NCBI RefSeq assembly: GCF_024298765.1
Contig: NZ_CP101210.1
Source: Escherichia coli
Lineage (GTDB): Bacteria > Pseudomonadota > Gammaproteobacteria > Enterobacterales > Enterobacteriaceae
DNA length: 64,000 nucleotides
Strand: one strand, 5' to 3'
Part shown: piece by piece, positions 33,701-36,700 of the stretch
How the letters are laid out: every line of letters starts with the position of its first letter
Numbering within the stretch: the stretch's first letter is position 1
Made by a program: the position numbers

Positions 33701-36700
33701 TCCCCGGCTATCGATTTTTACACGCCTTGCGTAAAGCGGCACGGCGCGGGGTGCGGATCAAACTGATCATTCAGGGCGAACCGGATATGCCGATTGTCAG
33801 AGTCGGTGCGCGCTTGCTGTATAACTATCTGGTTAAAGGCGGCGTTCAGGTATTTGAGTACCGCCGCCGCCCGCTCCACGGCAAAGTGGCATTGATGGAC
33901 GATCACTGGGCGACAGTAGGGTCCAGTAATCTCGATCCGCTCAGTTTGTCACTGAATCTCGAAGCAAATGTCATCATCCACGATCGTAATTTTAACCAGA
34001 CGCTGCGCGATAATCTGAACGGCATTATTGCCGCAGATTGTCAGCAGGTCGATGAGACCATGCTGCCGAGACGCACCTGGTGGAACCTGACTAAAAGCGT
34101 GCTGGCGTTCCACTTTTTACGCCACTTCCCGGCGCTGGTCGGCTGGCTTCCGGCACACACACCACGTCTGGCGCAGGTTGACCCGCCCGCTCAGCCGACA
34201 ATGGAAACGCAGGATCGGGTAGAAACTGAAAACACGGGGGTAAAACCCTGATGAGTAAATCACACCCGCGCTGGCGCTTAGCAAAGAAGATCCTCACCTG
34301 GCTGTTTTTTATCGCGGTGATTGTGTTGCTGGTGGTCTACGCCAAAAAGGTGGACTGGGAAGAGGTCTGGAAGGTCATCCGCGACTACAATCGCGTTGCG
34401 TTGCTCAGTGCGGTCGGGCTGGTGGTCGTCAGTTATCTGATTTACGGCTGCTATGATCTGCTCGCCCGCTTTTACTGCGGTCACAAACTGGCGAAGCGCC
34501 AGGTGATGCTGGTGTCGTTTATCTGCTACGCCTTCAACCTGACGCTTAGTACCTGGGTCGGCGGCATAGGTATGCGCTATCGTTTGTACTCGCGGCTAGG
34601 GTTATCGGGCAGCACTATTACGCGGATTTTCTCGCTCAGTATTACCACCAACTGGCTGGGCTATATTTTGCTGGCCGGGATTATCTTTACCGCAGGCGTG
34701 GTGGAGCTGCCGGATCACTGGTATGTCGATCAAACCACGCTGCGTATTCTCGGCATTGGCTTATTGATGATTATCGCGGTTTATTTGTGGTTTTGCGCTT
34801 TCGCGAAGCACCGCCATATGACCATCAAAGGGCAAAAGCTGGTGCTGCCTTCATGGAAATTCGCCCTCGCCCAGATGCTGATTTCCAGCGTTAACTGGAT
34901 GGTCATGGGAGCGATAATCTGGCTGTTACTTGGTCAAAGCGTGAACTATTTCTTTGTACTGGGCGTGTTGCTGGTTAGTAGTATTGCCGGGGTGATTGTG
35001 CATATTCCGGCGGGGATTGGTGTGCTGGAAGCGGTGTTTATCGCACTACTGGCTGGGGAGCATACCTCCAAAGGTAGCATTATCGCCGCCCTACTCGCTT
35101 ACCGTGTGCTGTATTACTTTATCCCACTGCTGCTGGCGCTGATCTGTTACCTGCTACTGGAAAGCCAGGCGAAGAAGCTACGAGCGAAAAATGAAGCGGC
35201 GATGTGAAGTTCGGTTAAGTTCTTTAGTATGTGCATTTACGACTAATGAAAAAACCGCGTATGCCTTTGCCAGACAAGCGTTATAGCTATCGCGGCAAGT
35301 ATCCCAAAGAAGCCGATAAAATAGTAATAGAGTGTTAATGCACCTGTAAAAGCGCAACTAACCGGACTCCACAACTCTTCGCTATGGCATTTTCCTGCCA
35401 GTTCAAGGAGCTTATTTCGTCCATGCGAGATAATGCCTGACCATAAAACAATCATTAAGCAACTTATTACCCAAATGGGCCGTTCACTCATTAATGCGGC
35501 ATTCCTGATGATCACCAGGGCCAGTCCTGCGGTTGTCACCAAACCCAAAGCGGTAATGAGCCATATGCCGTTTAATATCCTGGCTTCGTGCTGAAAATCT
35601 AATTTATTGCTGCTTTGCGAGTATGATTCCATTCTTTTAGTTATCCTTAGAAAAAATATTAATATTCACCATCAATAAATTTAAAGCCACGCATACAAAA
35701 TACTTTTGTATTTATGGATACGGAAAACACTTCCGCTCGGCCATAAGGCATATTTTATACCTGGTACTTGTTAAGTGTCGTTTTTTCGTAAGAAAAAAAT
35801 CCCGACACATGGCCGGGATATTGATGGTGAAAAAGAATTAACGGCGGTTGCCGAAGATCCGCAACAACATCAGGAACAAGTTGATGAAGTCCAGATACAA
35901 GGTTAACGCGCCAAGAATGGAATATTTGCGCAGGTTCGACGTGTCGCGGGTATCAATCTGCTCACCCATATTTTTCAATTTCTGCGTGTCATACGCCGTC
36001 AATCCGACAAAGACAATCACGCCAATGTAGGTAACTGCCCACATCAATGCTTCGCTTTTCAGCCAGAAGTTGACCAGCGATGCCAGCACAATGCCGATTA
36101 ACGCCATAAACAGCATATTGCCAAAGCCGCTTAGATCGCGCTTCGTGGTGTAACCGTACAGGCTCATTGCGCCAAACATTCCGGCAGTAACGACGAAAGT
36201 ACTGGCGATAGAAGCAGCGGTATAAACAATGAAAATACTGGAAAGCGTAAGACCCGTCAGCGCCGAATAAAGCATAAAGAGCATCGTCGTCACACCTGCG
36301 CTCAGCTTTTGAATCATCGCTGATAACACAATAACCAATGCTAATTGCGCGATGATCAGACCGATTAAAAAGACACGGTTAGTGAACAACAGCTCCATCA
36401 CGGCCGCGGAATTAGCCGCATACCAGGCAACAAATGCGGTCAGCAACAAGCCAACGGTCATCCAGCCATAGACTTGCGCCATATAAGTTTGCAAGCCAGC
36501 CCGGGGTTGTACAATTGAATCAGAACGTGGGAATCTGTCCATGACTTTCTCCTGAAGATATAAGGAATATCTTAAGGATACTGCAAAATGATGAGGCTGT
36601 GCATCGACGCAGCGTAAACGCATGTACTGAGCGGTGAAATTGCCGGACGCAGCGGTGCCTGATCCGGCTAACAAAAAACTACCAGCGTTTTGCCGCCTGC

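Follow-up and report, generated by a model that had tools for sequence, protein, structure and literature searches.

Proteins of the Bax inhibitor-1 (BI-1)/YccA family, among them human TMBIM6/BI-1, YetJ of Bacillus subtilis, and YccA and YbhL of Escherichia coli, share a seven-helix membrane fold, and the family has a di-aspartyl pH/Ca2+ sensor, known from the YetJ structures as the pair Asp171 and Asp195 of BsYetJ. In E. coli K-12, a further member of the family, YbhM, is encoded between ybhN and ybhL. Here, we analyze the ybhN-ybhL interval of a 64,000-nt stretch of E. coli contig NZ_CP101210.1 (assembly GCF_024298765.1; hereafter the window), in which an open reading frame (ORF) of only 129 amino acids (aa) occupies the place of ybhM. 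This ORF is very probably E. coli ybhM carrying an old, lineage-associated, in-frame internal deletion of 324 bp, and nothing that we found contradicts this identity or origin. The deletion allele is common, is already catalogued in public databases and is nothing new in kind, and as it stands the finding leaves knowledge of E. coli and of the BI-1 family unchanged. Its sole mildly interesting thread is that selection was possibly kept on a three-helix sub-domain.

Identity of the shortened ORF

The interval between ybhN and ybhL (35208-35837) measures 630 bp in the window versus 953 bp in K-12, and its single substantial ORF lies on the minus strand at 35243-35632, with an ATG at 35630-35632 and a TAG stop at 35243-35245. 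The surrounding region 35100-35950 matches 5,423 of the 5,426 complete E. coli genomes and has 100% identity with that of strain 104, which was isolated from a chicken in China. K-12 W3110 aligns to the same region in two pieces that span 1,174 bp, as compared to 851 bp in the window, and the gene annotated there is the 237-aa ybhM. A three-way DNA alignment of the window, K-12 and the short allele of strain TUM1226 contains one clean 324-nt gap, which is present in both short alleles. Nucleotide identity to K-12 is 95-97% on either side of this gap and the rest is collinear, from the ybhL terminator and the promoter region through the ribosome-binding site (RBS), ATG and stop codon to the spacer next to ybhN. 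The 129-aa product is 96% identical at the amino-acid level to residues 1-36 plus 145-237 of K-12 YbhM. What is missing are K-12 codons 37-144, i.e., 108 codons, and the frame is kept. According to the alignments, the retained 5' part (35525-35632, minus strand) comprises codons 1-36 with the N-terminal tail and most of helix 1, and the retained 3' part (35246-35524, minus strand) comprises K-12 codons 145-237 with the end of helix 5 and helices 6 and 7, corresponding to positions 130-205 of the Pfam Bax1-I profile.

A first-pass annotation, made from the sequence of the window without database searches, had already noted the 630-bp interval with its 129-aa ORF, and the ORF coordinates bear this out. 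It had also placed the end of the ORF 36 bp after ybhN, and the stop codon indeed begins 36 nt past the last ybhN base, which leaves a 35-bp spacer. Its description of K-12 ybhM as a BI-1 family gene of about 237 aa at this position was correct, and the 129-aa form is not the normal K-12 product. One detail of this description was wrong: the ybhM stop does not overlap ybhN in K-12, where the same 35-bp spacer is found (L001: ybhN ends at 1608, ybhM at 1644).

The alignments point to an internal in-frame deletion as the event that shortened the gene, and to neither a terminal truncation nor a replacement. Of the two explanations that the first-pass annotation had offered for this lineage, replacement or truncation, the loss of sequence stands in the form of the one 324-nt gap, but no replacement took place and the loss is not terminal. 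The junction itself was read straight from the aligned alleles. Full-length alleles contain a 10/11-nt direct repeat of the form CAGGG(C/T)TGGCC, with one copy, CAGGG(C)TGGCC, at gene nt 104-114 and the other, CAGGGTTGGCC, at nt 428-438; the two lie exactly 324 nt apart. One hybrid copy is kept in 16/16 short alleles examined, with the crossover within the common TGGCC. In the window this lone remaining copy (CAGGACTGGCC) is located at 35519-35529 on the minus strand, and the alignment puts the junction between 35523 and 35524. A repeat scan with 6-nt seeds missed the junction repeat, the exact cores of which are only 5 nt long. Judging from the junction, slipped-strand or illegitimate recombination between the two repeat copies would have removed the 324 bp and would have left one hybrid copy behind with the reading frame intact. 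The deletion is in frame because the repeat spacing is a multiple of three (108 codons). As a precedent for such a mechanism, a ybhM allele with a 29-aa deletion coincides with a 22-nt imperfect repeat that has a spacing of 87 nt.

The consequences for the protein can be outlined from structural models. The AlphaFold2 model of K-12 YbhM, based on a 62-sequence alignment (predicted local distance difference test, pLDDT, 90.1; predicted template modeling score, pTM, 0.86), has seven helices at residues 4-43, 54-70, 79-100, 103-127, 134-154, 159-192, and 198-235. Mapped onto this confident model, the deleted codons account for helices 2-4 in full, together with the end of helix 1 and the first half of helix 5. 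What remains is residues 1-36, which hold most of helix 1, fused to residues 145-237, which begin with the last ten residues of helix 5 and go on to helices 6 and 7. The product thus has one fused hydrophobic helix followed by two unchanged ones. Because helices 1 and 5 are both odd-numbered, the original direction of membrane crossing should be preserved in the fused helix, and by the same parity argument the native orientation should be preserved in helices 6 and 7. For the 129-aa product, Kyte-Doolittle analysis gives three hydrophobic segments (about 22-49, 51-71, and 97-123) and a single-sequence AlphaFold2 model of modest confidence (pLDDT 75.8) places three helices at 7-48, 52-84, and 90-127; both agree with the roughly three transmembrane helices of the first-pass annotation. 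As modeled, a three-helix membrane product of this kind would be unable to form the seven-helix BI-1/YetJ-type fold. Its BI-1 ancestry is still detectable, contrary to the first-pass statement that no BI-1 motifs are evident: residues 32-114 match positions 130-205 of the 207 positions of the Pfam Bax1-I profile (PF01027) with E = 1.5e-7 and 31.8 bits, just below the gathering score of 34.1.

Possible constraint on the remnant

All of the 16 sampled short ORFs are intact, and they comprise seven distinct nucleotide alleles that differ at up to 20 of 387 nt. Polymorphism among them is unevenly distributed. The C-terminal part (codons 55-129) carries 13 synonymous versus 1 non-synonymous changes (p = 3e-8 against neutrality), of which 6 synonymous and 1 non-synonymous are private to the short class (p = 7e-4). 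The fused helix (codons 22-54) has a neutral-like ratio of 3 synonymous to 9 non-synonymous changes, with 0 and 5, respectively, private to the short class, including G36E, N44D, and the R43 of the window. The two parts differ significantly (Fisher's exact test, p = 8e-4). The signals for expression are likewise retained. A Shine-Dalgarno-like AAGGA (35644-35648, minus strand) lies 11 nt upstream of the ATG, as read from the sequence, and is identical in K-12. The sigma-70 promoter of ybhM (35752-35781, minus strand), with its -35 hexamer ACGACA at 35776-35781 and its -10 hexamer TATAAA at 35754-35759 (a consensus scan calls TAAAAT), is conserved in the K-12 alignment. A constitutive RpoD promoter with the arrangement ACGACA-16-TATAAA is assigned to ybhM in the literature, where it carries an H-NS mark (PMC3946193). 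The promoter hexamers, RBS, start and stop are untouched by the deletion.

Because polymorphism is uneven, the ORFs are intact, the known truncations are mild and the expression signals are conserved, the remnant is suggested to be still translated and constrained. We are about half sure that the ORF is translated and that its C-terminal helices 6-7 are under purifying selection, which would make it a remnant of reduced function and not a dead pseudogene. A more far-reaching proposal is that the deletion made a three-helix mini membrane protein, the C-terminal two helices of which were kept by purifying selection through the diversification of a major E. coli clade, with the fused helix being free or adaptive. 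This proposal is tentative and we consider it somewhat more likely to be wrong than right. If true, it would present a natural BI-1 family protein reduced to a functional sub-domain, e.g., with a partner-binding surface kept and the channel-like fold lost. If the hint of purifying selection on the remnant holds, the allele would also show, as a modest experiment of nature, which portion of a BI-1 family protein is able to stand by itself.

Several observations weigh against continued function. The selection test rests on seven distinct short alleles only, and the AlphaFold2 model of the product, computed from a single sequence, is of only moderate confidence. The fused helix evolves in a neutral-like manner and has gained charged residues, i.e., R43 in the window, and E36 and D44 in other alleles. 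Furthermore, ybhM is evidently dispensable because it is often destroyed elsewhere. In EcPF40 (L015:1202-1914) a 1-nt deletion left a T8 run and a frameshift, and the gene is annotated as a pseudogene. IS1F is inserted in ybhM of N1193 and EC16 (L025:1130-2620 and L026:2198-3688), IS5 is reported in ybhM of the laboratory strain HB101/RR1 (PMC5379014), and further deletions, described below, occur in other strains. Finally, polymorphisms shared between short and full-length alleles show that some recombination has occurred, and the 13:1 signal may in part stem from full-length alleles.

The same observations feed the strongest alternative, which has a chance only a little short of even: the short ORF could be a dead remnant of a dispensable, inactivated gene, a pseudogene that is drifting and open by chance, its apparent constraint being inherited from full-length alleles via recombination or reflecting a short evolutionary time. 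In favor of this are the loss of four of seven helices, the score below the Pfam cut-off, the pattern of change in the fused helix, the separate disruptions of ybhM and the mosaic of shared polymorphisms, and, in addition, a 121-aa premature-stop variant is present on 248 contigs and variants with frameshifted 3' ends exist. However, simple drift does not sit well with the ratio of synonymous to non-synonymous changes in codons 55-129, either overall or among those private to the short class, nor with the finding that the C-terminal region of the short alleles is closer to one another than to any sampled full-length allele. The sampled ORFs have remained open despite 3-5% divergence, the known truncating variants cut only the last 8 or fewer residues, and promoter, RBS and start are conserved. 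Taken together, the odds between a constrained and an inert remnant are roughly even.

Origin and distribution of the deletion

The deletion allele is widespread. A junction-specific probe, designed so that non-deleted alleles cover <80% of it, spans the deletion junction in 575 of the 5,426 complete E. coli genomes (10.6%), and an independent 56-nt probe finds the junction in 568. For the deleted segment we used the count obtained with a B2-type probe (4,771 genomes); a probe from the middle segment of K-12 undercounts it (4,167). About 80 genomes have neither junction nor deleted segment. The window's own allele (>=99% identity) is present in 77-78 genomes, many of them from poultry, and the exact 129-aa sequence is found on at least 1000 contigs in public collections. 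This sequence equals RefSeq WP_000446942.1 ('hypothetical protein') and UniProt A0A0V9N5F1_ECOLX ('FtsH-binding integral membrane protein'), the latter name being an inherited annotation. The sibling short alleles WP_000446922.1, WP_000446924.1, WP_001586827.1, WP_001522650.1, and WP_001589933.1 are 94-97% identical to it and have the same locus and junction; the window allele differs from them by S7, T33, R43, I53, and S92. As a common allele among complete genomes, it is no peculiarity of the window's strain. Our literature search on ybhM found no paper describing the polymorphism, and a search for ybhL together with YccA gave no papers.

Seven distinct short-allele strains form one clade in a neighbor-joining tree of ybhN plus ybhL, apart from the K-12/O157 and B2-type groups and from strain EC11. 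With one short allele as the query over its C-terminal 225 nt, a similarity ranking of all genomes puts short alleles (>=96.4%) above all sampled full-length alleles (<=96.0%). Both tree and ranking, albeit from a small sample, fit a single old deletion that was inherited by one clade. The polymorphisms shared with full-length alleles nonetheless show some recombination, and the deletion may have recurred at the repeat.

As to polarity, the deletion is the derived state and the 237-aa form the older one, because full-length K-12 YbhM matches Pfam Bax1-I almost end to end (75.1 bits, profile positions 3-205 of 207), the YbhM of E. albertii likewise measures 237 aa (87% identity), and the segment is kept in 4,771/5,426 complete E. 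coli genomes (~88%). It is highly improbable that the short form came first and that an insertion or internal duplication added 324 bp in K-12-type strains. We found no support for it, the sole consistent fact being the 3-5% divergence among short-allele carriers, which indicates an old allele. Against it, the extra 324 nt supply helices 2-4 of what is a complete BI-1 domain, a YbhM-anchored profile matches YetJ over nearly its full length, and the flanking direct repeat with one copy left in the short allele is the signature of a deletion. Domain completeness, the E. albertii orthologue and this repeat signature thus rule out and effectively refute an ancestral short form.

Equally improbable is a replacement of ybhM by a low-GC membrane gene that is unrelated to it and was acquired horizontally. 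The low guanine-plus-cytosine (GC) content, to which the first-pass annotation had rightly drawn attention, would agree with such an origin: the interval has 0.400, the ORF 0.441 and the spacer upstream of the ORF 0.332, as compared to 0.525 for ybhN and 0.522 for the whole window. The H-NS mark reported for the ybhL-ybhM spacer (PMC3946193) would agree with it as well. However, full-length ybhM of K-12 is equally low in GC (0.423), and the ORF and both flanks are collinear with K-12 save for the one gap, which rules out replacement by an unrelated gene. An assembly or sequencing artefact, i.e., a repeat collapsed in one assembly, has a negligible probability, as nothing was found for it and it is already refuted by the same junction in 575 independently assembled complete genomes with diverged sequences.

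Other natural in-frame deletion alleles of ybhM encode proteins of 208, 195, 216, 221, 224, 218, and 212 aa, with internal losses of 13 to 42 aa (P0043, P0046, P0047, P0056, P0057, P0060, and P0061 in alignment A3). They resemble the allele of the window in that the same gene underwent the same kind of event, with internal helices lost and at least one deletion also lying between short direct repeats. These other deletions are rare, with 1-5 member sequences per cluster, whereas the 108-codon deletion is common, old and clade-associated. With its short, standard and three-paralogue forms, its insertions of insertion sequences and its other in-frame deletions, the ybhM locus is structurally unstable.

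In 750 of the 5,426 complete E. coli genomes, a third BI-1 paralogue, absent from the window, is located between ybhM and ybhL. Its representative in E. coli FDAARGOS_401 (L002:2427-3131) encodes 234 aa, matches Pfam Bax1-I with 47.6 bits and is 29% identical to the 129-aa product. The ybhN-ybhL interval of this three-paralogue form measures 1,667 bp.

Locus context and relation to the BI-1/YccA family

The order of genes around the deletion allele, clsB-ybhN-(ybhM)-ybhL-moaEDCBA, is unchanged as compared to other E. coli. The convergent left neighbor ybhN (34251-35207, plus strand; 318 aa) matches Pfam LPG_synthase_TM with 56.2 bits and is annotated as ybhN in both K-12 and the 100%-identical strain 104. 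The right neighbor ybhL (35838-36542, minus strand; 234 aa) is annotated as such and encodes a canonical BI-1/YccA family paralogue, with a Pfam Bax1-I score of 212.1 bits and a match to the B. subtilis YetJ structures at E = 1e-8. The mechanical ORF list gives ybhL as 339 aa (35838-36857, minus strand), reaching into the 3' end of moaE; the annotated product of 234 aa starts with the ATG at 36542. A scan places the intrinsic terminator of ybhL at 35789-35819 on the minus strand, with an 8-bp stem followed by a T tract. In some short-allele strains (L007:~1800-2500 in AR_0015, L019, elppa5), IS200C is present between this terminator and the ybhM -35 box, equivalent to window positions ~35790-35797. 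An Rfam scan of the ybhN-ybhL interval found no RNA family. Upstream of moaA, a molybdenum cofactor (Moco) riboswitch matches its full model with 103.4 bits (39370-39514, minus strand), as expected at this locus.

The value of the deletion allele is mainly one of annotation. In ~11% of E. coli genomes, the Prokaryotic Genome Annotation Pipeline (PGAP) labels the ORF 'hypothetical protein' or 'Bax inhibitor 1 family protein', which can now be read as the ybhM deletion allele. By its presence or absence, the deletion also serves as a simple marker of a clade to which avian-pathogenic as well as human extra-intestinal isolates belong.

Within the BI-1/YccA family, YbhM comes close to being an orphan. 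In a collection of 1.84 billion representative proteins, only 99 match it at E <= 1e-3, and outside the Escherichia type its nearest full-length relatives share 35%, 31%, and 29% identity with it. No NCBIfam model matches the short form, full-length YbhM or the third paralogue, and a sequence search with K-12 YbhM against the PDB gave no match even at E <= 1. YetJ is reached only via YbhL or a family profile; the YbhM-anchored profile matches it with E = 7.4e-13 over nearly its whole length. At the two positions of the di-aspartyl sensor, the 129-aa product has G71 and Y104, which are G179 and Y212 in K-12 YbhM. Asp occupies both positions in YbhL and YetJ, and is found in 41 and 42, respectively, of 62 aligned relatives. 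Even full-length YbhM is an atypical family member that lacks both sensor Asp residues.

Among known proteins, the closest is K-12 YbhM (b0787, 237 aa; WP_000446911.1), with which the window allele shares locus, promoter, RBS, start and stop. The window allele differs from it by the absence of residues 37-144, by three helices instead of the seven that characterize the BI-1/YccA family and the K-12 model, and by a score that falls short of the Pfam gathering threshold. The C-terminal part that it keeps aligns with the region of helices 5-7 in the family profile (PF01027); members of this family are YbhL and YccA of E. coli, YetJ of B. subtilis (PDB 4PGR) and human TMBIM6/BI-1. Yet YbhL is only 23% identical, YbhM in either its full-length or its short form has Gly and Tyr in place of the two Asp residues of YetJ and YbhL, and, in contrast to the BI-1/YccA family at large, the short YbhM is without more than half of the fold.

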